Notes: a model not told the origin generated them from the sequence alone. Shown: positions 6,891 to 42,178, counted from the stretch's first letter. The stretch: 64,000 nucleotides of DNA from a virus (IMGVR_UViG_3300042090_003221:32001-96000), one strand, 5' to 3'. Numbers and translations: made by a program.

Positions 6891-7928
6891 TCACACGCCG
6901 GTCATGGTCGAGATGGCGATCGGCTGTTTGATGATCGCGCCCCAGGAACCCGCCGTCTTCTTTTGCTGGTAGCTCGAGAGCTGGCGGATGATCGGATGGT
7001 CCTTCATCTTGACGTTGAAGGAGCAGAAGCCCGGCGACTTGCCGTCGTAGTTGTCGGCGATGAGCTGAACGTTCTCAATGCTGTTGACGGTGTAGCGCGG
7101 CGAGGTCTTCACCTTCAGATTCGGGTAGGCCTTCTTGATGGTGTCCATCGCCGAGATGCCGAAGGAGTTCGTCGACACCAGCGCGGCCTCGCGGGACGGC
7201 GAGCACGCGAAAGTCAGCGAATCCTTAGTCTTCACGCGACCGAAGGTCCGGGTCACCAAGTCGTTGAAGAGGATCTGGAAGTCGTTGAGGATCTCGGTCG
7301 GGGCCGCATAGGCGCCGTTCGTGCCCCAGCTCGTGCCGCCCATCGCCTTGGTGACCGGAGTCACGGCCGCCGGCAACGAGGGGTCGTTGAGGAGGCCGTA
7401 GCATTGGAGGCCGGAAACGCCGAAGTGATAGATATAGTCCATGAACTTGTCGAGCGTCGAAGCCGCCGACGTGTTCTGCTCCTGCACCCAATTGATCTTC
7501 GCTTCGCCCGCCTCGTCGATCTCCTTGTCGCCGATGTCGAGCACGGTCTGGAACAAGAAGCTCTGGCGCTGCGGGAAGATGGCGTTGACGTTGGAGCGGC
7601 CGTTGGTGTTACGGTCGCCGTACGCGGAGATCTCGCCCGTGTTTTCAACCACGGTGAAGGTCGCGGTGCGGGTCGTCCAGTCGCCCGTCTTGCGCTCGCC
7701 CAGAATGTTGGCGCCTTCGTTGGGGGCCTGGAGGACACGGACCGTCTCCGGGTCCATGTAGTTGGTCATCCAGAACGGGATGCCGGCAGAGCTCGTGGTG
7801 ACGAGCGTGGGCAGCGCATCCAGCGCACCCTGCCAATCGCTGCGGAACTCGTCGGGGACGTAGTCGTTCGCGTCGGTATGGATGCCCCACTCGCGTTCAA
7901 GGCGCGGGAAGTCCTTATGCTTGTTCAT
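6891..7928 (-). CDS. Major capsid protein (DUF2184-like)
   Basis: ALDALPTLVTTSSAGIP..KTGDWT..YGLLNDPSL..QKKTAGSWGAII motifs. Confidence 0.9.
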   Translation of the reverse strand: MNKHKDFPRLEREWGIHTDANDYVPDEFRSDWQGALDALPTLVTTSSAGIPFWMTNYMDPETVRVLQAPNEGANILGERKTGDWTTRTATFTVVENTGEISAYGDRNTNGRSNVNAIFPQRQSFLFQTVLDIGDKEIDEAGEAKINWVQEQNTSAASTLDKFMDYIYHFGVSGLQCYGLLNDPSLPAAVTPVTKAMGGTSWGTNGAYAAPTEILNDFQILFNDLVTRTFGRVKTKDSLTFACSPSREAALVSTNSFGISAMDTIKKAYPNLKVKTSPRYTVNSIENVQLIADNYDGKSPGFCSFNVKMKDHPIIRQLSSYQQKKTAGSWGAIIKQPIAISTMTGV

Positions 7929-7954
7929 GTTTGATTGATCCTTGTAACGCGCGA

Positions 7955-8461
7955 TTAATCGATCGACGTCGAGGTGATCTTCACGAGGCCGTTGATTGTT
8001 CCGATGGTCGCCGCGTACCACTTGGTCTCGACGTAGCCAGTGACGGTCGCGCCGGTATTGGCGAACTGGACGGTTCCGTCGGCGAGTTTGGCGAACGCCT
8101 TCTGGCCGACGGCGGCGGTGGCGATGGTCGCCTTGACCCAGACATCAGCTTCAATCAGCGGCAATCCGACGGGCATACCCTGCGGGATGGTCATGCCGCC
8201 TTCGGCGAGGTACGTGGTGATCATCGGGTCGCCGAACTCGCGCGCGACGATGCAGCTCGGCGCGCCGGACGCGGCGCTGTTGATCAGCACGGAGTCGGTG
8301 GCGGCGACGTCGCCCCAAGCAAAGCGGCCGACCGTGACGCCGCCAGCGCCAGCGACCCAGGAGCCAGCCGCGCCGGGAAGAACGCGGCGGGGGTTGAGCG
8401 AAGCCAGATCACCCTCAACGGCAGGCGCCTGGGTCATCTGCATGGAATTCGGGAAAGGCAT
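7955..8461 (-). CDS. Head decoration/cement protein
   Basis: APAVEGDLASLNP..GVTVGRFAW..ETKWY; between scaffold and MCP. Confidence 0.75.
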   Translation of the reverse strand: MPFPNSMQMTQAPAVEGDLASLNPRRVLPGAAGSWVAGAGGVTVGRFAWGDVAATDSVLINSAASGAPSCIVAREFGDPMITTYLAEGGMTIPQGMPVGLPLIEADVWVKATIATAAVGQKAFAKLADGTVQFANTGATVTGYVETKWYAATIGTINGLVKITSTSID

Positions 8462-8496: not shown

Positions 8497-9630
8497 TCAG
8501 CGCACGAGGCGGTTCGCGTTGGGGTAACGCTTCGCGTATTCCGCAGCTGCGGAAGCGTCCTGCGCGATCTTCGGAGTCGGCTTGACCGCGGCCCCCTTGC
8601 GGGCCTCAGCAAGCGTATCGAAGGTCACCTTCAGTACGGCCGAGGGCAGGGTGTCGACGCCCTTGACGCCGAAGGCCTTGAGGCCGAGGCGGTAGTAGTC
8701 GGTCGCGCTATCGCAGGTCACGACCTTGCCGATCGCAGCCTCAACGGACTCCTTCGCGGAGAAGGTCGCTTTGTTGAAGGCGCGCTCCGCCGCGACGGCG
8801 GCAGTGAGAGCCGCGTCCATCGCGGGTCTGGTGACCATATCGTTGTCCTCTTCATCGTTGGCGTTGGGATCGACTTCGCCGTCCGCCGGGCTGGCGGTTT
8901 CGGTTTGGGCGCCGGGGTCGACCTGCTCTTCACTGTCGGTCGCGGGCGTCTCCTCGGCGCCGATCTTGGCGACGAGCGAGTTGAAATGGTTCATGTCTTC
9001 GGGGGAGAGCTTCGAGGCGAGGAAAGAGCGCGCCATCGCGATGGCGTCGCCGTCGCCGTCACCCTCGACGTCTTCGTTGACGGCGCCTTCGCCTCCGCCC
9101 TCGACGCCGCCTTCGCTCTCGCCGACAGCGGCGGGGTCAACCGCGGGGTCCTTGCCCTTGTTTTCGTCGAGCTCTCCGGCGCTGGGCGGCGGCGCAGCGC
9201 TCGGATCCGTCACCGGTTCCGCGTCGTCCTTGGCCTCGATCGGGGCCGAACCCGCCAGCGCGTCGAGCAGCTTCGCGAGGCCCTCGGCGTCCGCGTCGAC
9301 CGCGAGCCGGCCCTCGACCGCCTTGAGCGCAGCCGCGGACAGCACCGGGAGACGCTCCGCATAATTCTTGTGGTTGATGCCGGCGACGATCGACGTGAAG
9401 TCGATTGCTTGATCCTGGGCGAAGCGCGGGGCGAAGTGAGCCGTAATGCCCCCCAGCACCAGCGCCGCCTTGCGAGTAAGGGGCTTACGAGCCATCTGCG
9501 AATTTTCCTTTTCGTTGAAACCGCCGGCTCCGCCGGCCTCCGCGAGCAGAGAAGCGTCCAGCCCCAGGGCCTTCATCGCTTCCTTTGGACTTGCGAAATT
9601 TTGACGCAGAGCCGCGCCGAGAGGGCTCAT
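8497..9630 (-). CDS. Capsid scaffold-like protein
   Basis: Acidic, disordered; AMDAA, IAQDA motifs; ends YPNANRL. Confidence 0.7.
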   Translation of the reverse strand: MSPLGAALRQNFASPKEAMKALGLDASLLAEAGGAGGFNEKENSQMARKPLTRKAALVLGGITAHFAPRFAQDQAIDFTSIVAGINHKNYAERLPVLSAAALKAVEGRLAVDADAEGLAKLLDALAGSAPIEAKDDAEPVTDPSAAPPPSAGELDENKGKDPAVDPAAVGESEGGVEGGGEGAVNEDVEGDGDGDAIAMARSFLASKLSPEDMNHFNSLVAKIGAEETPATDSEEQVDPGAQTETASPADGEVDPNANDEEDNDMVTRPAMDAALTAAVAAERAFNKATFSAKESVEAAIGKVVTCDSATDYYRLGLKAFGVKGVDTLPSAVLKVTFDTLAEARKGAAVKPTPKIAQDASAAAEYAKRYPNANRLVR

Positions 9631-9783: not shown

Positions 9784-10404
9784 TTAGCGAAACGACAACA
9801 GTGCTGCCTCAATGACTGACCAGCCGATTTCGGCAGCCGAGTCCCCGACGATGCAGTCCGGCCCGGCTCTCCCCTCTTCGACGAGGGCAAGGTGATTGCC
9901 TATCAAGTCGCGCATGACTCCGTCGTAGGACTCGCCTTGGTAGGTCCCCGGCGTCATGTCGGGGCGGTAGCGATAGCCGCACGATAGTTGTTGCTGTTTG
10001 CCGCTCTTGATGCGGTTGATTGCTTCGCCGTCCCAGAGCGTGAGGGGCGCCTTCAGGTACGGGCGAGCGAAAGAAACATCGGTTCCAACCGCGCCGGCGA
10101 CCTTGTCGTGAGGGTGATCCTCGGCGTCGATCGGCGTGTGCTGGATCAAGATCGGCTTCCCGGCGAAGGAAGGGGCCGCCTTTTCGAGCTCGTCGGGGTG
10201 ACGCAGGAGCTTGTAAATCCGGTTGGATTCGAGCCCGAGCTCGCGCCATCCGGGGATCTCTTTGCCGAGATACGGATTGATGGCCGCCTTGCTGATGTTC
10301 GCCGTGGAGACGCGCAAATGGCCGTCTTCGTCGAAGGTTCGAACCGACGACCTATCGAGCGCGATCAGCATTTCATGGGGTCCGAGGGGTTGCGGGTGCG
10401 GCAA
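9784..10404 (-). CDS. Prohead maturation protease (DUF2213-like)
   Basis: [36 protein letters not shown]; start may be 10371. Confidence 0.85.
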
Positions 10405-21378: not shown

Positions 21379-24300
21379 TCAGGCGACGTTCGGTCGGAAG
21401 ATCGAATGCCAAGCCGGATCGAGCTTGTCCTGAACGCCCTTGTAAAGCGCGCTCATCTTGTTGGACAGCTCGGTCCGGGCGACCGGATCCTTTGACTTCT
21501 GCCATTCCTGATACATATCGTGGCCGCCTTGCTTTTCCTTGGCGTCGAGCATGCCGGGCGCCCACATTTGGACCTCGCCGATCTGGCCGCTCTTGAAGCG
21601 CACCATCACCTTGCGGTCGAAATAGCCCTCTGGCGTCTTCGTCCAGCCCTCGTCGGCGACTTCGAAGTGACGCGCGAGCTGGCGCACCACCTTGTCGCTC
21701 TGGTCGGGCATCGGGGTGTCGAAGCCGCCGCGCACCGCGTCGTTGACCTCCTGAACGGTCTTGCCGCGCTCGAGCTTCTCCATGATGCGATCGGTCTTCT
21801 TGACGCCCGGATCCTTCCACTTGAGCCCGATGTCCTGGGCGGCCGCGGCGCAGACGTCGGCGAGCGCCTTCTGATTTTCGGGCGACATCGCGATGAGCTT
21901 GTTGACGTCCGACGGCGCGGACTTGCGCCAGAGGTTCTTGCGCTCCGACGCCCATTCGGGGCCGTGCGCCTTCAGGCCGGGGCGGTAGGGGCGCGCCTCG
22001 GCGACCGCGGGCGCCGCAGGAGCCGCAGGAGCTGCAGGAGCTGCAGCGGGTTTTGCGGCCGCTGGCGCGGCGGGCTTGGCCGCCTGGGCGGGGGCGGGCT
22101 TTGCCGCGGCCGTTGGCGTCGGCTTCGCGGCGGGGCCGCCAGCGGGCTTCCCTACGGCTTTGGACACGTCAGCCTTCGAGGGCATGGGCTGGTAGCCGGA
22201 ATGGCCGGTGAAAATCATGGGGCGGCCCTTGGCGTCTTTCGGCGGCGTGATGGCCTTTTCGCCGCCCTTGGCCTTCGACGCGGGCTTGGCCTCCGACTTG
22301 CCGCCCTTGGCCGGCTTCGCTTTCGCGCCGCCGCCGCCGGATCCGAACTGCCCGGCGTTGCCCGGCTGGCCGCGCTTGTGCTTGCCTTCGTCCCATTTGC
22401 CGGCATCGAGCGCGAGGGCGCGCAGGCCGCGGCGGAGCGGGTCGGCGTCCATCGCCGGCGCCGGGCAGTCGCGCGCAGGCGCACGCGAGGGCTTGGCGGC
22501 CGCGGCGAGCTTGCGCAGGCCGGCGGCGATAGGGCAGGCGTCCATAGCGGCGTCCTTGGCTTTGGGGCGGGCTGCAGGCTTATTTTCTATCGGCGAGACG
22601 TTGTATTCAGCGCCGCCGCGGGCGAATCCTTGCTTCTCGCGCTCGGTCGGGACGTAGGGCTTGCCGGTGCTCGCGTCGATCGGGCCTCCGCCAGATTTAG
22701 GGGAGGCCGCTCCGAATTTAGCCAGTGTTCCCTCGATCTGGCGCTGCAGGTCCGGGCTCTTGCCGTGAACGTGGCCGAGCGCTTGCTGAAGCGCGTCAAT
22801 GGTCGCCTTGCGGTCGCCCTTGGCGTTAAACTCGCGCGCCGCGTTGATCGCTGTGTGAGCCGCGACCTCGTGCTGCGGCAAAGGCTTGTCGAGATCGCTC
22901 TCGGCGGGCTTGGCGGGGGAGGGGGAGGCCGCAGCGAGCTTTTCCGGATCGCCACGGCTAAGCCGATCAACAATACCGTGCATGCCGGCGTTCTTCAGCG
23001 CCTCAATCGAGCCGTGCTGCTTCAGGGCCTCGTAGTCTTTGTCGGTCGGCGCTGGCAAATTCGGCGCGCCGGTGATTTGCTGGCGGCCGAGCGACCCCTC
23101 CTTGTTCTGCATGCGTTGGATATCGGCCCACTCGTGCCCGAAGATCTTCCCGCCGTCGTGGTGATCTTTCGGCGGCGTAGCCGGCTTACGCGCTGTGGCG
23201 GGAGCCTTGAACTCGGCGGGCTTGGCGGCGGTGCTGCGGTTCGCGCGCGACCACTCTTGTACCGCGTCAACTTGGCTGCGGCCCTTGGCGCGTTCCTGAC
23301 GGACGTAGTCTTGCACGCTCATGGACGTCGGCGAACCGCCCGCGGTAGCCTCGGGCTTGGCCGCAGGTTCCTTGGGGTCCTGCGACCCGACCGCCTGCGT
23401 CTTGCGCAGCTGGTGACCGCGCTCGCCGCCGGCGCCCTCCGGGGCGGCTTCGAAGGTGTGCTCGCCGTTCGACCACTGCGGCAACCGGCTGTGTTCGACC
23501 GGGTTGAAGCCGTTTGCCTTCATGTGCGCGTCGAGCTTGGCGAAATGGTCCTTGTCGGAGAAGGAGGCTTGCGACTTGTGGCTCTCGATCGCGCCGCCTT
23601 CGCCCGCGACCCTGCGGTAGCCGAGGCCGCCGAGCTTCAGGCCGGCGCCCTTGCCCTCAGCCGGCTTGCCCTTGGCCGACTGTGAGAACTTCGCGGCCCA
23701 GGCGACGTCTGGATTTCCGGCCGGTTCTTGAGCCGGGGCGGCGTTGCCGGACGCGCCGGCCGCCTCCTTCGGCGGGTCGACCTTCTGGACCTCCCACTTG
23801 CCGCTGCCCGATCGCTTGTCCGCGTCGCGCTCGGCCGCGGCTTTGTTCACGCTCCAGCCGACGACGTGACCCGCCGGCTGCTCGCCACCTTGGCTGACGA
23901 CGGCGTAAAGCGGCTGAGGCTTCGCGCCGCGCTCGGCTTGGCCTGCCCAGAACTTGCGCATCAGGTCGTTGGGTTTAGCCGGCACGCCAGTGCTGGCGCT
24001 GGCGGGCTTGGCGGCTTTGGCGGCGCCCTTGGCCAGGGCGGGGTCGTCGCTGCCGCGCATCTGCTCGTCGAGCAAGGCCTTCTTGTTCTTCAGCGTGGCG
24101 TAGCTCTCGCCGCCGAGCTTTTCGATCTCGGCGTTGGCCTTCGCGTAGTCGCTGAAGTGCTTGTCGCCCTTCGCGCGCGCGGCCCGCGTCGGGCTTCTGA
24201 TCGCGGCCTCATAGGCGCTGTAGGCCTCATGGGCACGGCGCGTTGCGTTTGCGAGATCCTTATCCACGTTGCGCCCGCCCGCGCGCATGGCCTCTTTCTC

Positions 24301-25005
24301 GGCGTTGCGGGCGGCGACGAACTCCTGTTCCAGGGCCTTCATTTCCGGCCCGTTCATCTTCTCGTCGTGGCGCTTGCCGTTCGCGCGCATCGCCTCTTCG
24401 TGCATCTTCTCGGCGGCGGCGACGTCTTTCGTCCGCGTCATGTGCTCGTGCGCTTTGGCGTAAGCCGCCTTGTCGGCCTCGTCGCGCTCCTTGAAGTGCT
24501 TGGCGGAGAGCTCGGAGATCGCGTTCTTGATCTCGTGCGAGGGGCGGGGCGCCTTCGGCTTCGGCTTGTCGCTCAGATGCTCGGAGCCCGGGCCGGAGAA
24601 CGCGGCGTGCGCGCTCGTGCGCGAGTTCGCGCGGCCCTTGCCGGCGCCGCGCGCCTCGCCGATCGGCTTCCCGTTGAACTTGCCGCCCATGCCGCCCTTG
24701 ATCTCGCCGTTCTCGCCGATCAGGACCGGTGTCCCGGGGCCGTTCGCGTTCGGGTGGACGGTGATCCACTTGTCGGCATCCATCGCGAGCCGCGCGAGGC
24801 CGCGCCGCACCGCTGTATCAAGCGCCATCGTTCCGTCGCCCGCCATCTCTTCCCCCGCGTCATCGTTGTCCGGATAATCGTCCCAGCCGCCGGTCGCGGT
24901 GAGCATCTTGTCGGTGTCGCCGGCGTCCGGGTTGCTGAACTCTTCCTCGGAGATCTCCGGCAGCTCGTAATTCGGGTCTTTCGGGACCGGCATGAGCTTA
25001 CGCAT
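21379..25005 (-). CDS. Large putative virion cargo polyprotein with C-terminal RelA/SpoT-type synthetase domain
   Basis: C-term GVKKTDRIMEK..NDAVRG..EGYFD..GEVQMW..AKEKQGGHDMY; repeated AMD/ALD modules; AKP-rich linkers. Confidence 0.8.
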   Translation of the reverse strand: MRKLMPVPKDPNYELPEISEEEFSNPDAGDTDKMLTATGGWDDYPDNDDAGEEMAGDGTMALDTAVRRGLARLAMDADKWITVHPNANGPGTPVLIGENGEIKGGMGGKFNGKPIGEARGAGKGRANSRTSAHAAFSGPGSEHLSDKPKPKAPRPSHEIKNAISELSAKHFKERDEADKAAYAKAHEHMTRTKDVAAAEKMHEEAMRANGKRHDEKMNGPEMKALEQEFVAARNAEKEAMRAGGRNVDKDLANATRRAHEAYSAYEAAIRSPTRAARAKGDKHFSDYAKANAEIEKLGGESYATLKNKKALLDEQMRGSDDPALAKGAAKAAKPASASTGVPAKPNDLMRKFWAGQAERGAKPQPLYAVVSQGGEQPAGHVVGWSVNKAAAERDADKRSGSGKWEVQKVDPPKEAAGASGNAAPAQEPAGNPDVAWAAKFSQSAKGKPAEGKGAGLKLGGLGYRRVAGEGGAIESHKSQASFSDKDHFAKLDAHMKANGFNPVEHSRLPQWSNGEHTFEAAPEGAGGERGHQLRKTQAVGSQDPKEPAAKPEATAGGSPTSMSVQDYVRQERAKGRSQVDAVQEWSRANRSTAAKPAEFKAPATARKPATPPKDHHDGGKIFGHEWADIQRMQNKEGSLGRQQITGAPNLPAPTDKDYEALKQHGSIEALKNAGMHGIVDRLSRGDPEKLAAASPSPAKPAESDLDKPLPQHEVAAHTAINAAREFNAKGDRKATIDALQQALGHVHGKSPDLQRQIEGTLAKFGAASPKSGGGPIDASTGKPYVPTEREKQGFARGGAEYNVSPIENKPAARPKAKDAAMDACPIAAGLRKLAAAAKPSRAPARDCPAPAMDADPLRRGLRALALDAGKWDEGKHKRGQPGNAGQFGSGGGGAKAKPAKGGKSEAKPASKAKGGEKAITPPKDAKGRPMIFTGHSGYQPMPSKADVSKAVGKPAGGPAAKPTPTAAAKPAPAQAAKPAAPAAAKPAAAPAAPAAPAAPAVAEARPYRPGLKAHGPEWASERKNLWRKSAPSDVNKLIAMSPENQKALADVCAAAAQDIGLKWKDPGVKKTDRIMEKLERGKTVQEVNDAVRGGFDTPMPDQSDKVVRQLARHFEVADEGWTKTPEGYFDRKVMVRFKSGQIGEVQMWAPGMLDAKEKQGGHDMYQEWQKSKDPVARTELSNKMSALYKGVQDKLDPAWHSIFRPNVA

Positions 25006-26611
25006 GGTCGCGCCCCTTGTGATCGAACAGCCAGTCGACATGATCTTCGAGCTCTTTCGGCAACGTGCCGCGCTTGTATTCCGGCGACGTTACCAGCGCG
25101 GCGAGCTCCGCGTCGGTTTCTTTGATGTTCGTCGTCGCGTATTCACTGATATTCTCGCGGATCCACTTCTGCCGCGTCGTGTAGTCGATATTCAGCTTTT
25201 GCAGCACGCCCATAAGCCGGTCGGCTGACCGAACGCTCGATCGTAGGCCAAGGGCGTGCGCGAGTTCATGAACAATAGTCGCGCGCGCTTGGTCTTTGCT
25301 CGATGCGCTGACGGACCAATTCGCCTTTCCCGCAGCGATGCGCGCGTCGTTGGCTTCGGCTTGCCCTTGATTGAATTCGCCCCGCTTCGACGGGCTGATC
25401 GAAAAATACCCGACATCACCCTTGCCGGGCTCATTCCTGTACCATGCATGGCCGCAGGACTTGCCCGTCGAGCCCGCCGCCAAGACGACATGAGCCTTCG
25501 ACAGCGCCTTCTTGACGTCGAAGCCGTCGGCTTCCAACTTCGTCAGCGCGTCATTCACTTGCGAGACGATCTCCCGCATGCCCTTCGCCGAGGCGCCGGA
25601 CTGCGTGATATCGATCGGGGTGTGCCCCTTTATGCGGTAGCCCGGGTCGCTTCGCTTGGCCTCAATGATCTTATTGTATTGCTCACGCTTGGCCTTGCCA
25701 TCTTCGCCGTCCTTATCCGGGTGTTTATACCACTCGGAGAACGCCTTCTTGTCGTCGCCGTGCTTAACGCCGTTGATGAAACCGAGGCCGAAGCGCTCTT
25801 TCATGTAGTCGTGAATTTCTTTTGGCGTATCTTTGGCAAACGATTTTCCGCCCGTCGATTCAGCCTTTTTCTTAGTCTTGGGCTGATCCTTTTTGGCTTC
25901 TTTTTCGAGGCGCTTAATTTCGCTTTTGTGTTTATTGTAACCAAAAGCGTGGTTGTTCATTTCATTTCGGCGGGTCTTCGCCCAATCCTTCCACGACAAA
26001 TAAGCCGCATGGTGCGCGGCCATCGCCTTGCGGTGTTCGTCGAGCGTTTTGGCGTTCTCGCTGAGTTTGTTGGCCTCATCCGACAGATGGGCCTTCTTGA
26101 CCCTCTCGAACTCGTACGCTTCCTTGCTGCCGTAGGGGTGCGGGTTCTTGGCGCGCGGATCGAACGGCGGCGCTTCCGGCGGCTTCGGCGCTTCGGCGGG
26201 CTTCGGAAGCGCGAGCCGCTTCTCCGGTCCAGGGCCGAGCCAAATCGCCGGCGAGTGCTGGCTGGTCGAGCCGGACTTCGCCGCGCTCTTGCTGCTCGGA
26301 TTGACGAACTTGCCGTTGAGCTTGCCGCCGGCGCCGCCGATGATCTGCCCTGCGCCGTTGATCAGCGCGGGCTGACCCTTGTTGTCGGGGCCGTTGGGAT
26401 GGATCGTGATCCAGTGCTCGGCGTCCATCGCGAGCCCGCGCCAGCCCGCGGCGTCGTGCGCCGCGCCGCCGAAGCCCGTGAGATCGACGATCTCGGACGT
26501 CCCGCGGAAGACGACGCCGGCGGCGATCTTCGGCGCGGCGTCGGCGGCAAGGCGCGGCTTTCCCAGCGTAGCGGCGAAAGATCGCCAACCGCTTGCGGAT
26601 GCGTCGGTCAT
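24998..26611 (-). CDS. Putative virion cargo protein with C-terminal zincin-like metallopeptidase
   Basis: HELAH..ISEYATTNIKETDAE; N-term GWRSFAA..LAMDAEHWITIH. Confidence 0.75.
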   Translation of the reverse strand: MTDASASGWRSFAATLGKPRLAADAAPKIAAGVVFRGTSEIVDLTGFGGAAHDAAGWRGLAMDAEHWITIHPNGPDNKGQPALINGAGQIIGGAGGKLNGKFVNPSSKSAAKSGSTSQHSPAIWLGPGPEKRLALPKPAEAPKPPEAPPFDPRAKNPHPYGSKEAYEFERVKKAHLSDEANKLSENAKTLDEHRKAMAAHHAAYLSWKDWAKTRRNEMNNHAFGYNKHKSEIKRLEKEAKKDQPKTKKKAESTGGKSFAKDTPKEIHDYMKERFGLGFINGVKHGDDKKAFSEWYKHPDKDGEDGKAKREQYNKIIEAKRSDPGYRIKGHTPIDITQSGASAKGMREIVSQVNDALTKLEADGFDVKKALSKAHVVLAAGSTGKSCGHAWYRNEPGKGDVGYFSISPSKRGEFNQGQAEANDARIAAGKANWSVSASSKDQARATIVHELAHALGLRSSVRSADRLMGVLQKLNIDYTTRQKWIRENISEYATTNIKETDAELAALVTSPEYKRGTLPKELEDHVDWLFDHKGRDHA

Positions 26612-26729
26612 GTGTTGAGCTTCCCCTCGAATGATCAAAACTTCGGCCGATGCGTGGCAGAGGCGAAAAACGCCTTTGACTGCCGAGAGTCTGTGTGTGA
26701 TGCTCCAATCAACCAGGGAGCGTTATGTG

Positions 26730-26948
26730 ATGAAATATACCAAACAAGAATTGGACGAAGCAGCTATCTACGACTTAGCGATCGATGCCCGCACTTCGCG
26801 GGAGCAGGCAGAGAACGGCCCGTATTTTCCAGAAATCGGCATTACCCGCGAAAGCTGCATTGCCTACGCTGAAAAGTGCGAGCGCTCCATTGAGAGATAC
26901 AAAGACGGTGGGGCGCACGCGTTTGTCTTGGGCAAAGAATCGCTTTAG
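26730..26948 (+). CDS. Small antisense protein (possible immunity/moron)
   Basis: GGGAG RBS, TTGACT at 26676; converges on 26945..27715. Confidence 0.6.
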   Translation: MKYTKQELDEAAIYDLAIDARTSREQAENGPYFPEIGITRESCIAYAEKCERSIERYKDGGAHAFVLGKESL

Positions 26949-27715
26949 GTCTTCCGGGCCGTCTTAATCAGGTCCGACCACATGGCGTCAGCTAATTTCT
27001 GCGCGTGGTCGGAAAACATGCCGGCAGAGGATTTCTTGGTTTCATACGCGACGAAGCTTTCGGCCATGAACTCGAAAATGTTCTCCGCGCCATACGCTGA
27101 GGTCTGATTGTTAACAATGTTCAACGGACCTTTCCCACTATAACCCAGGTGCCCGTAGACGATTTTCCAGAATTTCTTGAAGCCTATCTTGTCTTCTAGT
27201 TTCGACGCGAGCAGGTGCCCGAATTCATGCGTCATGACGCCGCCGACGGAAGGGTCATTCATCATTCCGTCCCATTCCTTGGCGTATTTTTCTAGGCCTT
27301 CTTTTGTCCATGCTTTAGGACTCAGATTTATGTTGTTTCCGGAGCGATAAGCCAGCGCTCCCTCGCGTTCGTTTTCTTCTACCTTCGGTGACCCCGCCTC
27401 CGGATATTTTTTCGAAAGCTCGGCGACCCTGGAGTGCGCGACGGTCTTATGGTCATTCTTTCCCCGGACCTCGGAAATGTTTTTGCCCGTAAATTTTCCG
27501 CCTAGACCGCCTTTGACTTCGCCGTTAGCGCCGAGCAATACAGGGGATCCGGGGCCTTCTTTGTTGCCGTGAACTGTGATCCACTTCTCGCCAGCATCCA
27601 TTGCCAGGGCGCGCCATCCTGCCCGCGCCGCCCTCACCTTGCCGTCCTGCGCAAGGCGCGGCTTCGCTACAGCGGCGGCAAAGCTTCGCCAACCGCTCGC
27701 AAGTGCGTCGGGCAT
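26945..27715 (-). CDS. Putative virion cargo protein with zincin-like metallopeptidase
   Basis: HEFGH..SAYGAENIFEFMAESF; N-term GWRSFAA..LAMDAGEKWITVH. Confidence 0.75.
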   Translation of the reverse strand: MPDALASGWRSFAAAVAKPRLAQDGKVRAARAGWRALAMDAGEKWITVHGNKEGPGSPVLLGANGEVKGGLGGKFTGKNISEVRGKNDHKTVAHSRVAELSKKYPEAGSPKVEENEREGALAYRSGNNINLSPKAWTKEGLEKYAKEWDGMMNDPSVGGVMTHEFGHLLASKLEDKIGFKKFWKIVYGHLGYSGKGPLNIVNNQTSAYGAENIFEFMAESFVAYETKKSSAGMFSDHAQKLADAMWSDLIKTARKT

Positions 27716-28384: not shown

Positions 28385-29158
28385 TTAAAACGGGATAATC
28401 GGCTCTCCGACGCATCGGCAATTGAAGATCTGGCCGGGCAGGGAGTGATGGTCCGGGGGATCGCAGAGCGGCGGGTTGAGGTATTCAAACGCTTTGCCGT
28501 TCAGCCTGCGGTGACCGGGGCGGACATCGGAGTCGCCGATCGTGCGCCAGATGAAGTGGGTGCATCCGATCGACTGCGCCCGGGTCTGCGTCAGCACGCT
28601 CCCGGTGCGGGCAACCTCGGTGCGCGCGATCAGCGTCGCCCTCGAGCGCGAGACCTCGCCGGTGCGCATGATCTCGGCGATGTAGGCCGCGGGTCGCTTC
28701 CCCTCGGTGATGCCGGCGAGCGTGACCTTGCGGACGCGCTCCGCGGCCTCGCGCGGAATCGAGGTGATGAGCGAGGTCTGCTCGTTGAGCAGCGCCTGCA
28801 TGACGCCGCCGACGGGGGTGTCGTCGATCTCGCGCCGCAGGTTGCGGCCGATGCGCGCCGCGGCCTCCTTCCAGCCCTGGAGGTCGCGCGAAGACATCTC
28901 GGTGATCATGCGCGTCGTCACGGAGCGCGCCCAGGGATCAAGGATCTTGGCGTATTGCTCGAGCTGGATCTGGACCGCCTCATAGACCGCGGGGTCGGTG
29001 AGGTCGAACCCCGCGATGAGGTCTTGAACGACCTGCGCCACCTTGCGGAGCTGGCGCGCGTACTTGCCCTCGACAACGCGGGCGCGCTTGTACGCCTTGC
29101 CGGCCGGAGTGTCTCCGGCGCGGTCGAAGGCGTGGTCGAGGCGGACGAGGGCGTTCAC
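28385..29158 (-). CDS. Head morphogenesis protein (MuF/SPP1 gp7 family), short form
   Basis: RATLIARTE..WRTIGDSDVRPGH..PGQIFNCRC; GTG start inferred. Confidence 0.9.
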   Translation of the reverse strand: MNALVRLDHAFDRAGDTPAGKAYKRARVVEGKYARQLRKVAQVVQDLIAGFDLTDPAVYEAVQIQLEQYAKILDPWARSVTTRMITEMSSRDLQGWKEAAARIGRNLRREIDDTPVGGVMQALLNEQTSLITSIPREAAERVRKVTLAGITEGKRPAAYIAEIMRTGEVSRSRATLIARTEVARTGSVLTQTRAQSIGCTHFIWRTIGDSDVRPGHRRLNGKAFEYLNPPLCDPPDHHSLPGQIFNCRCVGEPIIPF

Positions 29159-29349
29159 GAGACGGCCCGCATCCGCAGCTCGCGCCGGCGTCTTGCGATG
29201 GCAGCCTTGACCTCCTCGACGCCGAGAACCGACGGAAAGCGAGCGCTCATGCAATGACCCGTCACGTCGTCGAGATACGTTGCTGTCGTGCCGTATTGAT
29301 CGCCGTAGACGTAGGGACGAACGATAATCATTGAAATAAAGTCGTTCAT
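29155..29349 (-). CDS. Hypothetical protein
   Basis: GTGA overlap with MuF. Confidence 0.5.
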   Translation of the reverse strand: MNDFISMIIVRPYVYGDQYGTTATYLDDVTGHCMSARFPSVLGVEEVKAAIARRRRELRMRAVS

Positions 29350-29850: not shown

Positions 29851-31635
29851 TCAATTGTTCAAGAGATTGGGACCGCAAGATAAGGCCACGCGAGAAATTA
29901 GGCCATTGTAGGGGTTGTTGCCCTGTGCGTTGCCGATTGTGATTGGCGAAGCAAATGCGGGGAGGGCCGCTGCAACGGGAGCTGATAAGACACCATTGAA
30001 GCGGGACGTGAGCGTCGTTGTCGTGATGGAAGACGCAAACCTGCCAGAAACTCCCACGGACTGCGCCGCTTGCACTGTAGTGGCAAGGGTTGTCCCATTG
30101 TAGGACCACGCCGAGGGAATGCCGATAGTTCCATAACGTCGGTGCAGATAGTAACCAGAGCCAGCGGGCCAGTATAGCGCGACTTGATCCTGTGCGGTGC
30201 TGCCGGTGATTGGTTCATAGGGCGTCGAAACCGTCAGCATCGAACGCGAGGTAGACGCGCCGCAATTCGGGGCCGGGAGGTTGATTATCGTAAGCGCCCG
30301 TGTCACTGCGCCTGAACTCGTCAGTATCGGACCCGTGGCGAAACCCAGCGCCGAGTTGTCGGTTGGCGTCAGGTTGACGGTCGGGTTCGTCGTGAATAGC
30401 GCGCCTGTTATCCCAATCGAGCCGACGTTCTGCGAGTTGTTGACAGTCCAACTAAGTCCGCTGCCGCCAGTGATGACGGTTCCGGCCGAAATTCCAGTAC
30501 CAGTTAGTGTCTGCCCGATGACGATTGAGCCCAGTGAAACCGACGAGACGGTAAGCGTAGTTCCGGAAATGGCGCCTTGGAAATATGAGTCAAACAGGTA
30601 CGCGCCAGCGGGGGGCAGGGAAGAGTAAGAACCTCCAACCGGGACAGAATTGACGCTTGCGACGCCGCCAGAAATGCTGACGTTGACCTGGGCGGTTGTA
30701 GTGCTCGTACCGAACGCAACGTACATATTTCTCGGCGTTGTGCCCGTTCCGCCAGCGCCGCCACTCGCAATCGCCGCGCTCGCGACGGTGGCGGGCAGGT
30801 TGGGGTTAAGCTCGATCTGCGGTTGCCAGAAACGTACCGTGACATCGACTGTAGCGGTCGATGAGTTTAAATTCACAACGAAAGCTGGATAAACAAAAGC
30901 CGTCGCGGACAGCAAGGGAGTCGCTGAAACGACCATCAATTGTCTATTAGCAAGAGCGGCTACCGACGTCGAAGACGTCTTGTTAGAGACAAACGATCCA
31001 CCACTGTTGACGAAGTCAACATTGTAACCTATTGAATTTATATTTGCGACATTCGGTGATGCGATAATCTGCGCATAAACGGACTGACTCCAAGTCTGTC
31101 CGTAACTCGCAGTGATCTGCGTTGACGCCTCGAATGATAAGCCAGGAAACTGATACGACGCCGTGCCGTAGAAGCGCACGTCGACGTAGTTCATGCCATA
31201 GCTGACGCCGGTCGAGACGATCTGCGTCGATAATCCCGGGGCGTAGAGAGACCAATACTGCGGCGGCGTACCCGGGGTTCCAACAACCGCACCCTGCATT
31301 GTTGAATTGCGAATCCCGTTCGTCCGCGCCTCCCACGCCCACAAGCCACAGCCCAGCGTGATCGCGGGAGTATTGGCGGGGAACGGGCCGTAGAGTTGGG
31401 CGTTGCAGACTTCATATTCCTGCGAGGCGCGCGAGACGTTAAGCTGGCTGGGCGTCAGGCCCCAATAGCGGGAGTGAGCGAAGTCCATGTCCGGGTTCGC
31501 GGCGGGCAAGATCCAGCCGGGCGGATTCCCGATCACCGGGAAGATATTTTTCGAGACCGCGGCCGCGGAGCCGGCGCTGAGCAGCGCGCAAACCGCCGCG
31601 AATAGGCTGAGAGCCCTGATCAAACGCGAGGTCAT
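29851..31635 (-). CDS. Head spike/fiber-like protein with signal-peptide-like N-terminus
   Basis: GLWAWEARTNGIRNS, WQPQIE, FATGPILTSSGAVTRA motifs; S/T/G-rich; N-term hydrophobic helix ending AAA. Confidence 0.6.
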   Translation of the reverse strand: MTSRLIRALSLFAAVCALLSAGSAAAVSKNIFPVIGNPPGWILPAANPDMDFAHSRYWGLTPSQLNVSRASQEYEVCNAQLYGPFPANTPAITLGCGLWAWEARTNGIRNSTMQGAVVGTPGTPPQYWSLYAPGLSTQIVSTGVSYGMNYVDVRFYGTASYQFPGLSFEASTQITASYGQTWSQSVYAQIIASPNVANINSIGYNVDFVNSGGSFVSNKTSSTSVAALANRQLMVVSATPLLSATAFVYPAFVVNLNSSTATVDVTVRFWQPQIELNPNLPATVASAAIASGGAGGTGTTPRNMYVAFGTSTTTAQVNVSISGGVASVNSVPVGGSYSSLPPAGAYLFDSYFQGAISGTTLTVSSVSLGSIVIGQTLTGTGISAGTVITGGSGLSWTVNNSQNVGSIGITGALFTTNPTVNLTPTDNSALGFATGPILTSSGAVTRALTIINLPAPNCGASTSRSMLTVSTPYEPITGSTAQDQVALYWPAGSGYYLHRRYGTIGIPSAWSYNGTTLATTVQAAQSVGVSGRFASSITTTTLTSRFNGVLSAPVAAALPAFASPITIGNAQGNNPYNGLISRVALSCGPNLLNN

Positions 31636-31643
31636 GCTCGATC

Positions 31644-32234
31644 TCAGTTCTGCGGGCCGGATAGCGACAAGGACAGCGTCGCGGAGGCGCCGGGAACGTC
31701 GGCGGCGACAGTTTGCAGGCAGGCGTAGAGGTTCTGCGTCGACGTGCCGTCCGCGTTCTTGTAGTCCCACGACAGATTCGTGAGGGGCGCGTAGGTTTTG
31801 GCGTCGCCGGTTGTGATCTGGGGGGCGGCAAACGAAATCGAGACCGGGCCAGCGCCGATGAGATAGGCGTCGTCGGTTGTGCTCGACGCGAAAGCTGCGT
31901 TGTCGGCGCAGGTCGTGTTGGTTGGGTTTTTGTTCCACACCCGCACGACATAGGTCTGCGTCGAGCCCCAAGAGGTCCAGGCGAGCAGCGACGTGATTAT
32001 GCCTGAGCCTCCGTTGCTCCGCCCGAGCGGAATGGTGATCAGTCCGCCGACGGACACGCCCGCGGCGTGCGACGCCGCGGCAGGAGAGGTCGTCGTATGC
32101 TGTGGGCCGCTATCATAGCCGCCCACCGCTCCGAGGCTGAGCCCAGGCAGCTGCGGCGGGTCAGCATACGCCGGGATGGTGGCAAGCATAGACGCCGCCA
32201 ACAAGGCCGTCGACGCGAGGAAAAGCCTGTTCAT
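31644..32234 (-). CDS. Beta-rich protein with Sec-type signal peptide
   Basis: MNRLFLASTALLAASMLATIPAYA|DPP. Confidence 0.6.
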   Translation of the reverse strand: MNRLFLASTALLAASMLATIPAYADPPQLPGLSLGAVGGYDSGPQHTTTSPAAASHAAGVSVGGLITIPLGRSNGGSGIITSLLAWTSWGSTQTYVVRVWNKNPTNTTCADNAAFASSTTDDAYLIGAGPVSISFAAPQITTGDAKTYAPLTNLSWDYKNADGTSTQNLYACLQTVAADVPGASATLSLSLSGPQN

Positions 32235-32271: not shown

Positions 32272-34278
32272 CTACGTGGAGGGCTTGAGCGGCTTGGTCA
32301 CTTCGGGCGATGCCGGCGGCGAGCCCTTGGCTGCAGGCTTCGGCGCCGGCTTCGGCAGCTTCGGCGGCTTCAGCGCGGCGAGCTGGTGCGCATGAGGCGC
32401 GGGGGCCGCCGGCTTCGGGGCCGCAGGAGCTGCGGGAGCACCGCCCTCGGCCGGGAGGTCACCACCCAGATCGCCCGGCTTTCCGGGGGATCCGCCTGGA
32501 TTTGCGCCACCCAGAGCACCGCCCTGTTCCGTCCCGCCCGGGGCGCCGGGAGCGCCCGGCGGGCCGCCCATACCCGGCGGCATGCCCGGGGGACCGTCGC
32601 CCTGCGGCTCCGGCGGATCCTCGTCGGCCTTCGCGATGTCGTCGTCGGTTATCTCGATTCCGACGCCGGTGACCGCGGACGAGGTCCGGATCATCTGCAG
32701 CGCCTTCTTCGGCCCGATCAACTGCGCGTCGAGCATCTTGGTCACGGCGTCGACGACCGTGCCCGCCATCGTCGCCTTTTCAGCATGCGTCATCGGGTAG
32801 GGGACGCTCGCGTCGGAGTTAAGCGCGGCATAGGGGCCGTCGGTGTCGGCGGTGACGCGGTTGCGCTCCTCTTGACCCGAGATCGCGCGCGACTCCACCA
32901 GCGTCTTGCCTGTGTCCGCGTCGGCCTTGCGCAGGTCCGCCTTCTCCTGTTCGGTAAGCTCGATCAGGGGCACGAACTTGAAGATGATGTCCTCGTCGAC
33001 GTCCCCGAACTCGTCGAGCTGGATCACGCGAACGACGGTCTCAAGATTCGGCCGCAGGGTCGCTTCCTGATAGGAGAGAACACGATCCTCCCAGCAACGC
33101 ATTTCCTGATCGCCCGACGCGTTGAGGCCGCTCGGCGAAATGCCCGTGAGCTTGACCAGCGGGATCTGCGTGATCGACGCCATGTGCTCTTGCGCCTGGG
33201 ACTGGATGCCCTCGAGGCCGGAAATGGGCGCGGAGACGTTGGCGAACGCCTCCTTGTCCTTGTCGATCGCCAAAACGCCGCTGTTCGTTTTCGTGGCGTT
33301 GAAGACGTCGACGCGGTTGAAGAAGGCCTCGCCGCCGCCGCCCGCGAGGATATCGGCCATGTTCGTGGAGAGCACGAACGTCGAGAACGCCTTGACGATC
33401 GAGGTGACGCCCTGACGGACGTCCAGCCAGTTGTCGACGTAGGGGCGCGCCATCTGCGTGGCGCTGAGGCCCGCGAACGCATAGGCGGGCTTCAGAATGT
33501 CGGGGACCTCGCGCGCCACAAAGGTCAGGAACCGGCTCGCATGCACTTGCTGGCCGAGCACGAACCACTGCGAGGGCTTATAGAAGTCGGCCGCCAGCGG
33601 GTTGCTGGAATTGTAGCTCTGGGGGAAACACCAGACGGGCTCCACGACCCTGATATCGCGCAGCGTGCCCTGTACGATCTTGGCTTTGGACACGTCGGAG
33701 TTGCCGCGGCCGATGTCCTCGATGAGCTCCGGCCCTTGGACGTCGCCGAAATCCATGAACCAGTGACCGCGGCCGAAGAGGCAGTCGTGCTCGAGAACCT
33801 CGCGCGCCTTGGACTGCAGGTTGAGGCGTGTGATCCTCTCCTCGATTTTCTTGATCCGCTCCTTCTTGTCCTTCCCACCGGCGCTTGAGAATTCGATCCA
33901 GTTGCGGCTCGCTTCGGTCGCGACCGTTTCGGCGATGAGGCGGTACTCGCCGCGCTGCGCGAGGATCGAAAGCAGCGGGAACCCCAGGAACTGCTGCCCT
34001 TCCTCGGAGCCCCAGCCGCCGCTATAGGCCCAGGACTCGACCTCTTGAGCGCTCGCCGCGTCGTCGAGCGCCATCTCGGGCGTCCCGGCCGGCACGACGC
34101 CGGGGCGGGGCTTGTAGGCCTCGAACACCCTGCCTCGCGCCGCGGACGCGCCGCGCCTGCTCTTGGCTCGCGCCGCCGTCGCTGCGGAGACAGCGAACTT
34201 CTCCGGCGCCGGCATCAGGGCAAGCGCGGCCTTCGCCGTCTTGCCGCCCGAGCGCTTGACTTTGGTCTTTTTACCCAC
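32272..34278 (-). CDS. Portal protein (DUF1073-like) with Pro/Gly-rich tail
   Basis: FLGFPLLSILAQRGEYR, VHASRFL, IPLVKLTGISPSGLNASG. Confidence 0.9.
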   Translation of the reverse strand: MGKKTKVKRSGGKTAKAALALMPAPEKFAVSAATAARAKSRRGASAARGRVFEAYKPRPGVVPAGTPEMALDDAASAQEVESWAYSGGWGSEEGQQFLGFPLLSILAQRGEYRLIAETVATEASRNWIEFSSAGGKDKKERIKKIEERITRLNLQSKAREVLEHDCLFGRGHWFMDFGDVQGPELIEDIGRGNSDVSKAKIVQGTLRDIRVVEPVWCFPQSYNSSNPLAADFYKPSQWFVLGQQVHASRFLTFVAREVPDILKPAYAFAGLSATQMARPYVDNWLDVRQGVTSIVKAFSTFVLSTNMADILAGGGGEAFFNRVDVFNATKTNSGVLAIDKDKEAFANVSAPISGLEGIQSQAQEHMASITQIPLVKLTGISPSGLNASGDQEMRCWEDRVLSYQEATLRPNLETVVRVIQLDEFGDVDEDIIFKFVPLIELTEQEKADLRKADADTGKTLVESRAISGQEERNRVTADTDGPYAALNSDASVPYPMTHAEKATMAGTVVDAVTKMLDAQLIGPKKALQMIRTSSAVTGVGIEITDDDIAKADEDPPEPQGDGPPGMPPGMGGPPGAPGAPGGTEQGGALGGANPGGSPGKPGDLGGDLPAEGGAPAAPAAPKPAAPAPHAHQLAALKPPKLPKPAPKPAAKGSPPASPEVTKPLKPST

Positions 34279-35902
34279 GTCGCATCCCTCGCGGCGGCAC
34301 GCCGGCCCGGCGCATTGCCTCTTGACTGATAATCATTGGTCGATTGACGCCTGACATTCGGATCATCACGGCGTCGGCAAGGTTCGGCGACTTTGTGCCG
34401 TCAGGCGCCTTGTTGATGACGATCTTGCCGACGGTGTTTGTTTTGAACGTCGGTTGCGATAGCTCGGCGACGAGCTTGGCACGGTGCTTGAGCCCTAACG
34501 GAATCGAGATCAGCTCATCAGGGCTGGCCTTGACGCCCTCAGTCACGGCGCGGAATGTTTTCTGAAAGCGGGTCCGCAAGGACCACCACTTTTGCGCCTT
34601 GAGGTTCAGGAAGTAGTCTTCGTTTTTGCGGCCCCTGACGTCCTCGGACGATGGCTCATCGACGCCAGCGGAGCCGCGGAACATTTGCACGCTGATGGTG
34701 CGAGCGTTGCGCTTAGCCCGCTCTTCATTGATCACGCGTGCGTCGCCGCGCACCCCAGCGCCTAGACCGTCGCCGTCGTAGGTGAAGCCGTCGTAGCCGT
34801 GCTCCTCGCAGAAGCCAAATACCTTGATGACGGTCCCGAATATGTCGTCGCCCTTGCCGGACCACTCCTCGAGCGCCTCGAGCACGACGCCGTGCGCGCC
34901 GCAGTACGCGTTGAGATCCTTGCCCTCGTCGGCGACATCGAGCGCGCCGTAGCGCGAACCGGTCGGCTTGAAGTCGAGCACGACATGGGCGTCGATCGCG
35001 GCCTGGACCCAGGCGGAGGGAATGAGGACGCCTGCGACCGAAGACGCGAAATCGATGTCGATTTCCTGCGCGATCGTGACGGGATCGAGGTCGACGAGCT
35101 GCTTCTGATACCAGACCTCGTCTTTGCGAGGATCGTCACGCCAGTGGAAGCGGAAGACCCTCTCCTCGGGCCATTCGACGACCTTGCGGTGGAACGGGTT
35201 CCCGAGGCCGTTCGCGGTGCTGATATCGATGCGGCATGTCGTGGTTTGCGATAGCGCGGCGTCGACGGTTTCGGGCCGCTCGAGGTACGCGGCCTCGTCA
35301 ACGAAATAGATCGAGGCGCGGTCGCCGCGGCCGATGTTGTCGCCGGCCTCGCCGGTCATGATCGACTCGGTGTCGCGGAACATGATCCGCATGTACGGAG
35401 CGTCGTTCTTGGGGTCGAAGTTGCCGCGGAACTCCGGCGGCAGGAGCTCGACGAACTTTCGCGCCTTCCAGAACAGGGACTTCGGGGCGCCGAGCTTGTC
35501 GACGTATTCCTCTTTGCGTGACCCCCAGCCGATCGCGACGCCCTCGTTGAACAGGCAGAGCGTGCAGGACAGCGCGATGGCGACCCAGGACGCGCCGGAC
35601 TCACGCGACTTCGGCGACACCCCGGGCTCGCAGGCGCGCCAGCGCGCTAGGATCCAGTTCACGAGCTCGCGCTGGCGCGGGAACAAAATAAAAGGAACGA
35701 TCGGCGGGAGCCCAAGCGCGATGTTGCGCGGGTCGAAAGTGCAGCCCCAATCCGAGATGAAGTCGGCGGGGTTATCTTTGTAGTGCGCCCTCAGCGCCGG
35801 GAGGAGCTCAGGTTTGGCGCGGATCTCTCTATAAGTCTTGGTTCTTTGTGCGAAAACCCGGGGGTAGTCCGGATTCTTGTGGTCGAACCAATCAAGGTGC
35901 AT
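34271..35902 (-). CDS. terL: Terminase large subunit
   Basis: KSRESGASW (Walker A variant), GRGDR..FVDEAA (Walker B), LDVADEGKD, SPNLADA. Confidence 0.92.
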   Translation of the reverse strand: MHLDWFDHKNPDYPRVFAQRTKTYREIRAKPELLPALRAHYKDNPADFISDWGCTFDPRNIALGLPPIVPFILFPRQRELVNWILARWRACEPGVSPKSRESGASWVAIALSCTLCLFNEGVAIGWGSRKEEYVDKLGAPKSLFWKARKFVELLPPEFRGNFDPKNDAPYMRIMFRDTESIMTGEAGDNIGRGDRASIYFVDEAAYLERPETVDAALSQTTTCRIDISTANGLGNPFHRKVVEWPEERVFRFHWRDDPRKDEVWYQKQLVDLDPVTIAQEIDIDFASSVAGVLIPSAWVQAAIDAHVVLDFKPTGSRYGALDVADEGKDLNAYCGAHGVVLEALEEWSGKGDDIFGTVIKVFGFCEEHGYDGFTYDGDGLGAGVRGDARVINEERAKRNARTISVQMFRGSAGVDEPSSEDVRGRKNEDYFLNLKAQKWWSLRTRFQKTFRAVTEGVKASPDELISIPLGLKHRAKLVAELSQPTFKTNTVGKIVINKAPDGTKSPNLADAVMIRMSGVNRPMIISQEAMRRAGVPPRGMRRG

Positions 35903-42023: not shown

Positions 42024-42099
42024 TGGTGCCGCCGGGGCGGTCTCGAACCCCCGGCCTGCCGCTTACAAGGCGGCTGCTCTACCCCTGAGCTACGGCGGC
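42024..42099 (-). tRNA. tRNA-Thr(TGT)
   Basis: GCCGCCG acceptor, loop CTTGTAA, TTCGA, encoded CCA; one-base bulge in T stem. Confidence 0.85.
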
Positions 42100-42103
42100 G
42101 AAT

Positions 42104-42178
42104 TGGCTGAAGAGGCAGGATTCGAACCTGCAGCCACTCGATTAACAGTCGAGAGCTCTACCGTTGAGCTACTCTCCA
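42104..42178 (-). tRNA. tRNA-Asn(GTT)
   Basis: Cloverleaf with loop CTGTTAA, GGTTCGAATCC, encoded CCA. Confidence 0.92.

Follow-up and report, generated by a model that had tools for sequence, protein, structure and literature searches.

A common N-terminal header on three putative head-cargo proteins encoded in the head operon of a contractile-tailed phage

In the Dar antirestriction system of phage P1, the N-terminus of DarB is needed for packaging, and packaging depends on an Hdf/DarA hierarchy. The present analysis concerns a 64,000-nucleotide viral window (bases 32001-96000 of a 115.8-kb IMG/VR provirus record, IMGVR_UViG_3300042090_003221; coordinates are counted from the first base of the window), in which three consecutive genes of a head operon, P0001, P0002 and P0003, encode proteins with a common N-terminal header. 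In phage T4, the internal proteins IPI-III and Alt carry a short N-terminal leader, the capsid-targeting sequence (CTS), which is removed by gp21 (PMC9026906). The cleavage site of this prohead protease is a small-x-acidic motif; the cargo is injected along with the DNA, and foreign proteins can be given the leader as well (PMC9026906). Protease gp245 of phage SPN3US cleaves behind A-X-E, its preference being Ser at P1' and Val or Ala at P4, and trims the propeptides of capsid, portal and ejection proteins at several redundant sites; the phiKZ protease cuts after S/A-X-E (PMC10052503, PMC9026906). Toxins, anti-defence enzymes and other proteins that phages inject are difficult to identify by their sequence, and a conserved header combined with a readable maturation motif would allow such cargo to be catalogued from genomes and metagenomes.

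P0001, P0002 and P0003 are late-strand genes located downstream of the gene for the MuF head protein, and each of them possesses a module of about 45 residues with the consensus L-A-M-D-A-x(2,3)-W-I-T-[VI]-H ... G-G-x-G-G-K-[FL]-x-G-K. An earlier sequence-only reading had ascribed this module to all three genes, which is confirmed by the translations, a six-frame scan and a profile search. WIT[VI]H and GGxGGK are confined to these three genes in the six-frame scan of the window, and the module profile finds the same three places only in the whole provirus record (E 1e-36 to 9e-35). The three products are probably proteins carried in the phage head and marked by the common header, which consists of a variable leader ending in hydrophobic-A-x-D and a conserved mini-domain. 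The DUF2213 prohead protease probably trims the leader at A-x-D, and this cut would place the module at the mature N-terminus. Taken as a whole, the interpretation of P0001-P0003 as head-internal cargo, with DUF2213-dependent trimming and the module as a portable handle, seems to us fairly probable.

The smallest protein, P0003 (256 aa, 26945..27715, minus strand), is composed of a propeptide, the module and a domain with HEFGH (27215-27229). Its leader (residues 1-24, 27644..27715, minus strand) ends in L-A-Q-D and resembles that of P0002; the module (residues 37-78, 27482..27607, minus strand) starts with LAMD (27596-27607). P0002 (24998..26611, minus strand; 537 aa from the ATG at 26611) comprises a leader, the module (26309..26434, minus strand, LAMDAEHWITIH...GGAGGKLNGK), a linker and a lethal-factor/PPEP-like zincin domain with HELAH at 25256-25270. 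Its start is most likely this ATG, with GAGGGGAAG, a Shine-Dalgarno-like site, a few bases upstream. A 105-codon open reading frame (ORF; 26631-26948, plus strand) fills the gap of about 300 bases between P0003 and P0002; a 72-codon version would begin MKYTKQ. Its composition looks protein-like, no Pfam family is matched, and the ORF might encode an antidote or immunity protein against either of the HExxH proteins.

P0001 (21379..25005, minus strand) has 1208 aa from the ATG at 25005, the most likely start; the longest ORF, from 25041, has 1220 aa. The ATG at 25005 overlaps the P0002 stop as ATGCGTAA (24998-25005, minus strand) and lies behind an AAGGGG site, which suggests translational coupling of both genes. 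The protein contains, in this order, an acidic leader, the module, a middle part of about 740 aa, a second, degenerate header, a Pro/Ala linker and a toxin domain. The module occupies residues 85-125 in the numbering from the ATG at 25041 (24667..24789, minus strand), its first four residues being LAMD (24778-24789), and MALD is found just upstream (24817-24828). Two or three A-x-D sites are present in the leader of each of the three proteins.

P0002 (from the ATG at 26611) and P0003 do share their start, as had been claimed: both begin with x-D-A-x-A-S-G-W-R-S-F-A-A...K-P-R-L-A-x-D, so that a 24-residue leader ending in R-L-A-x-D is common to them. Beyond the window, this type of leader was noticed, among the matches listed, only in the close relative P0030. 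The further proposal that the N-terminal helix is a targeting peptide is not supported, since the helix lacks conservation and the module stands at the very start of many family members. The GWRSF helix was accordingly rejected as a general targeting signal: it is missing from most family members and, among the matches listed, is found in one close relative only.

One of the putative cargoes is a small protein with an HExxH motif and another a lethal-factor/PPEP-like zincin; the third has two units and ends in an alarmone-synthetase-like toxin. Their description as three unrelated enzymes stands: the two HExxH proteins have no detectable mutual similarity and the third protein is alarmone-synthetase-like, with the caveat that two of the three are HExxH proteins. 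None of P0001-P0003 has a Pfam match at E<=0.1. For the C-terminal 310 residues of P0002 (237-546), an AlphaFold2 (AF2) model was obtained with a predicted local distance difference test score (pLDDT) of 83.6 and a predicted template modelling score of 0.81. Its best VIA-align match is the anthrax lethal factor catalytic domain (1yqy_A 456-771; Z 10.3, root-mean-square deviation 3.9 A over 188 residues), followed by PPEP-3 (Z 7.9) and PPEP-2 (Z 7.6), so that only lethal factor has Z>=8; Foldseek alone gives no significant match for this domain. In the model, the domain is a lethal-factor/PPEP-like zincin, with HELAH placed in a lethal-factor-like catalytic fold. The Pfam ATLF model, which is matched by one other module protein, does not exceed the threshold for P0002, whose only Pfam matches, all sub-threshold, are to Reprolysin_3, M10 and Astacin.

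The toxin domain of P0001 (last 210 residues, 21382-22014, minus strand) has homologues with 34-65% identity that are fused to portal (PF06381) or DUF2213 protease domains. It matches Tas1 (6ox6) weakly in phmmer (E 0.76) and has no match in Pfam. The middle part of P0001 yielded no match in domain and homologue searches. P0003 belongs to no family in Pfam or NCBIfam, no relative of the whole protein was found by homologue search, its C-terminal part has none among longer proteins either, and its model has no Foldseek match in the PDB at E<=0.001.

The second header of P0001 (22327..22458, minus strand) splits the protein into two units. It consists of a helix followed by PAMD...LALD-AG-K-W-D-E-G-K-H-K-R...G-Q-F-G-S-G-G-G-G. 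In six portal- or protease-fused homologues of the P0001 toxin (P0157-P0162), [WF]-x-E-x-x-H-P-R-x3-G-K-[FW] stands at the same place, with G-S-G-G next in 4/6. The short form looks like a module that lacks the middle hairpin; a relation between them is suggested by the motif similarity and by one weak match of the degenerate header to the module hidden Markov model (HMM; i-E 0.0017 in a 10-sequence database).

The family to which the module belongs is large. A profile of 61 columns, made from the three window copies, recovers 886 representative clusters (50% identity) out of 1.84 billion at E<=1e-3 and 327 at E<=1e-10. The module mostly occupies residues ~15-75 of proteins of 81-4150 aa, some of which have two to four copies, and about 20 of its 45 positions are invariant or nearly so. 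Neither Pfam nor NCBIfam holds a family for it, and a search of the literature with its motif string gave no match. Among the PHROGs it is present only as the N-terminus of phrog_25904 (function not known there) and of phrog_62 ('DNA helicase'). In the AF2 model of P0003 the module (residues 41-80, pLDDT 89-95) forms three short beta strands and then a Gly-rich loop, for which Foldseek against the PDB finds no known fold and the ESM Atlas gives no usable lead.

The partner domains of the module include ADP-ribosyltransferases, ddrB-ParB, LPD1/3/5, NUDIX, InPase, PBECR3, Gln_amidase (glutamine deamidase), RelA_SpoT, an ATLF-type peptidase and DUF5710. DUF2213 is present in 11 and a portal domain in 6 of the 144 module proteins scanned. 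This is the polyvalent-protein repertoire, and it was counted in favour of the head-cargo interpretation. A module HMM with a catalogue of partners had been proposed together with the motif, and its outcome, 886 clusters whose partners are of the polyvalent-protein repertoire including DUF2213 and the portal domain, agrees with a modular system.

Prophages with the module are found in Pasteurellaceae, Enterobacteriaceae, Desulfovibrionaceae, Nitrosomonas, Azospirillum, Planctomycetes, Clostridia and others. The module also heads the 'helicase' proteins of Morganella phage Mecenats66 and Bordetella phage PHB04. Contigs of Clostridia metagenome-assembled genomes (L125-L131) have arrays of three or four consecutive genes, each with a module-like header at its start; one protein of these arrays has a second copy near residue 720-757. 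These arrays are a predicted Firmicutes counterpart of the window cassette. Proteins of 1500-1950 residues headed by the module occur in Nitrosomonas, Parvibaculum, Caballeronia, Binatia, Spirochaetes and others (L102, L105, L111, L112, L114, L115, L117, L118, L120, L122). About half of these loci have a further giant ORF (1370-1814 codons) immediately upstream; head genes of the lineage of the window were not detected near the giant-protein genes.

The genomic context of the module was surveyed in 80 IMG/VR loci containing 85 module ORFs, with our own crude gene calls (longest ORFs, greedy selection). Recognisable head genes surround the module gene in 78/80 of these viral loci. The module is fused to a portal protein or a prohead protease in 39/85 ORFs: 16 are portal-module-effector fusions, in which the module begins 13-125 (mostly 20-40) residues after the portal domain, and in 23 the module, a variable region and the protease-scaffold form a single frame. 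Free genes lie between portal/MuF and protease, as in the window, in 11 cases and after the capsid and head-completion genes in 25; the remaining 10 ORFs have another or a partial context. In Mecenats66 the order is portal, minor head protein, module-bearing 'helicase', protease and capsid.

The domains of the window recur in such fusions. The peptidase domain of P0002 is found elsewhere in a portal-module-peptidase fusion (P0036, L063, L064), and the toxin domain of P0001 is found on portal proteins and on DUF2213 proteins. In every arrangement the module is N-terminal to the effector, so that module and effector together look like the unit that gets moved. The comparison thus lends support to the modular head-cargo system that had been postulated, through the 78/80 loci with head genes, the 39/85 portal or protease fusions and the occurrence of the window's own domains in fusions elsewhere.

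The A-x-D motif could serve as the maturation site of these proteins. The sequence-only reading had named such sites in the portal (MALD, 34063-34074), MuF (HAFD, 29123-29134), protease (IALD, 10354-10365), scaffold (PAMD, 8815-8826; IAQD, 8557-8568) and capsid (GALD, 7818-7829) proteins. All the sites listed exist and five lie on conserved columns; the raw number of motifs is not above chance, and the MuF site is off the conserved column. A raw enrichment of A-x-D in the window proteins was rejected, since 31 to 500 of 500 residue shuffles reach the observed count. Raw counts being at chance, an alignment was made instead for each head protein with its non-redundant homologues in the 80 loci, the alignments of variable regions being approximate.

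Five of the named sites (portal, protease, two scaffold, capsid) fall on columns with A-x-D in 60-92% of homologues. The motif is found in 23/25 sequences at the capsid N-terminus, in 26/39 at the portal N-terminus (where portal D72 is at least 90% conserved), in 16/29 at a column of the MuF N-terminal region and in 18/23 just ahead of the protease domain. The scaffold has three internal columns and one about 20 residues from the end (20/23); conservation at 9295-9306, 8815-8826 and 8557-8568 is 13/23, 15/23 and 20/23. The flanks of the conserved sites agree as hydrophobic-A-[MQLF]-D-[AS]. The motif also stands ahead of the module itself: in 95/153 modules an A-x-D lies within 9 residues before the Trp, 70 of these having three residues between Asp and Trp, and most of the remaining portal fusions have G/S-x-D. 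Among 400 X.Y patterns, A.D is the top one in head-internal families (9/103 conserved positions; the next pattern has 3), and it occupies 2/212 conserved positions of the controls (sheath, neck, one tail protein and terminase; Fisher p 0.001).

An external boundary is provided by Pbunavirus phages. The window capsid protein is homologous to E217 gp25 and Pa193 gp26 (E ~1e-17), and its A-x-D column aligns with A62-M63-D64 of Pa193 gp26, a protein modelled from residue 66 onwards. The Pbunavirus capsid protein has its sole A-x-D at residues 62-64, ending two residues before the first visible residue; residues 1-65 are invisible in cryo-electron microscopy (cryo-EM) of E217 and Pa193 (PMC10329688, PMC11456595). 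The Pa193 scaffold fragment visible in the capsid comprises residues 286-326, with A-x-D at 289-291 inside the fragment. The view of A-x-D as a prohead-protease site thus gains support from the position-specific conservation in head-internal proteins and from the Pbunavirus capsid boundary. The result also predicts where the capsid, portal and scaffold proteins of the therapeutic Pbunavirus phages would be cut during maturation.

From module homology, head-gene context, the fusions, the A-x-D conservation and the cryo-EM boundary we infer packaging, cleavage, its P1 position and the existence of a binding partner of the module. The cargo genes would be expressed together with the head operon, and their products would enter the procapsid. 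There the DUF2213 protease would cut after the Asp of A-x-D, likewise in the capsid, portal, MuF and scaffold proteins, leaving the enzyme with the module as its new N-terminus. The module would then act as a portable handle, which would hold the cargo within the portal region or close to it, guide its exit along with the DNA, or do both. Its role as a loading or ejection tag, proposed from the sequence alone, would fit this scheme: the module could retain the cargo near the portal or serve as an exit leader. The predicted complex of two portal copies (residues 100-545) with residues 1-95 of P0003 had a score of 0.00, and with controls not run it counts neither way.

A bolder version is possible, which we put forward only tentatively: the long module and the short form could be one widespread, undescribed cargo header of tailed phages, distributed over many bacterial phyla, which after a small-x-Asp cut becomes the N-terminus of every injected effector and its leader through portal and tail. 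If this were true, the header and A-x-D would form a portable and predictable code for loading and delivery, as well as a search key for injected effectors.

Several observations weigh against the head-cargo interpretation. The module is present in 5/50,697 deposited phage genomes, and the published description of Mecenats66 contains no virion proteomics. In MuF, the motif HAFD and the conserved column do not coincide. Giant InPase-type proteins have G-Q-Q-E-F and no A-x-D before the module Trp, and the Asp four residues before this Trp could be part of the module fold and not a cutting site. The 'protease' label of DUF2213 is an annotation only, and the authors of the Pa193 study name the DUF2213 homologue a scaffolding protein (PMC11456595). 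The authors of the E217 study leave it undecided whether the capsid N-terminus is cleaved or disordered (PMC10329688). Finally, portal and scaffold fusions, which would be packaged anyway, still have the module; it is therefore not merely an address and does something besides or other than that.

The module could instead be a processing cassette only, which marks the cutting points of head polyproteins and has no role in loading or ejection. It does lie at domain boundaries, after the portal and before each effector of the multi-module proteins P0005, P0006, P0007 and P0015, and the short H-P-R...G-K-F form stands between carrier and toxin. A candidate cutting motif, A-x-D or G/S-x-D, usually directly precedes it. 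However, in many proteins the module lies at residues 3-12 with nothing there to cut off, and proteins that start with the module show that it is not merely a cutting site. Moreover, the conserved A-x-D sites of the capsid, portal and scaffold occur without any such module, and a 45-residue fold with about 20 near-invariant positions exceeds the needs of an A-x-D protease site. This explanation is considered unlikely.

Another explanation is that the module is a docking domain for the portal (or MuF) that brings free effectors into the procapsid as a pure packaging signal, A-x-D being incidental. A portal gene is present in 73/80 loci, the portal-module fusions in 16/80 loci fit Rosetta-stone logic, and in the window the cassette is downstream of MuF, which in turn follows the portal after two ORFs. 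Yet a MuF domain (PF04233) occurs in 0/144 scanned module proteins, and six loci (L006, L041-L043, L047, L052) have no MuF at all. The module also persists in fusions with the portal or the protease-scaffold, which would have no need of docking, and the conservation of A-x-D across head proteins is not incidental. Docking as the sole function is improbable. Least probable is that the header is an intracellular pro-domain or regulator keeping toxic enzymes inactive in the producer, with coincidental gene position and no virion cargo: two cargoes are toxin-like and would need restraint in the producing cell, and small antisense ORFs adjoin them, but the header also precedes non-toxic-looking domains (ParB-like, NUDIX, LPDs) and 'helicase'-annotated proteins and is covalently joined to portal and prohead protease, both head components.

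The head operon of this contractile-tailed phage lies on the minus strand in the order TerL-portal-...-MuF-102-codon ORF-three-gene cassette. It begins with the terminase large subunit (34271-35902) and the portal protein (Phage_portal_3, 32272-34278), whose M-A-L-D at 34063-34074 is conserved. The last ~120 portal residues (32272-32640, minus strand) form a Pro/Gly/Ala-rich low-complexity tail, and in related phages module-effector fusions occupy the position of this tail. Two ORFs separate the portal from the short MuF head protein (28385-29254, minus strand; 289 aa; PF04233 E 1.5e-17, phrog_324 E 1e-57), which lies upstream of the cassette and is without a toxin extension. One of them, 29851-31971 (minus strand), has a plausible start, MTSRLIRAL..., at ~31638 that is signal-peptide-like, and from there would encode ~595 Ser/Thr/Gly-rich residues; G+C is lower here (0.59). 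The ORF is without a match in Pfam or PHROG and may be a secreted or surface 'moron' within the head operon.

After the cassette, an opposite-strand block of ~11 kb intervenes, and the operon then goes on with protease, scaffold, capsid, neck and sheath genes. The DUF2213 prohead protease (9784-10404, minus strand) is identified by PF09979 (E 2.7e-51) and phrog_2229, 'head maturation protease' (E 3e-87); its IALD (10354-10365) is immediately ahead of the Pfam domain. Titles and abstracts of the papers found to mention DUF2213 show nothing about cleavage. The scaffold protein (8497-9630, minus strand) contains the three conserved sites given above, and in the major capsid protein (6891-8021, minus strand; phrog_264) G-A-L-D is placed where likeness to other capsid proteins starts. 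Genes for tRNA-Thr(TGT) and tRNA-Asn(GTT) stand side by side in the provirus at 42024-42178 (minus strand).

Among the described systems, P1 Dar is similar in its large helicase/methylase-type proteins, which are (in P1) or would be (here) packaged in the head by way of N-terminal determinants; the module heads the Mecenats66 and PHB04 'helicases'. P1 itself is not among the five module-matching phage records. The cleavage codes of SPN3US and phiKZ share with the candidate sites a small P3, an acidic P1, Ser or Ala at P1' and a hydrophobic P4, and in both cases sites lie at the ends of N-terminal propeptides, with several redundant sites per propeptide. The differences are Asp instead of Glu, another protease family, and cleavage that was demonstrated there by mass spectrometry and is predicted here.

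The T4 CTS is likewise a short N-terminal leader on otherwise unrelated proteins (PMC9026906), which are head-internal in T4 and probably so here. There is no sequence similarity between the two. The T4 CTS has ~10 residues and is itself the address, whereas here a conserved 45-residue folded module would stay on the mature protein and the part that would be cut off is variable. The protease would belong to DUF2213 and not to the gp21 family, and P1 would be Asp, not Glu. The header would offer a design, open to testing, by which foreign proteins might be put into capsids other than that of T4.

MuF polymorphic toxins, including Apk2, also have swappable C-terminal toxins in a head module beside portal and MuF (PMC5576092, PMC12226406). 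The window cassette has this trait, with differing C-terminal parts in head-module genes beside the portal. A candidate (p)ppApp-synthetase-type domain is among the putative cargoes, and nearby small genes may be antidotes. In contrast to MuF toxins, the P0001-P0003 polypeptides have no MuF domain, MuF being a separate gene (28385-29254), and the module is uncatalogued. The header would extend the concept of phage polymorphic toxins beyond MuF fusions.

The phage-type polyvalent proteins of Iyer et al. (2017) show the same repertoire of ADP-ribosyltransferase, ddrB-ParB, LPD, InPase, PBECR, NUDIX, RelA/SpoT and zincin domains and the same portal-terminase head-gene context, and portal fusions are described there too (PMC5512222). 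The module is unnamed in the main text of that paper and is not among the Pfam LPDs; it could be an LPD listed elsewhere (PMC5512222). As for the multi-domain nature of polyvalent proteins, a single effector can be recognised in P0001 beside its two header units, P0002 and P0003 are 'solo' forms with one effector each, and relatives with 2-4 modules and several enzymes exist.

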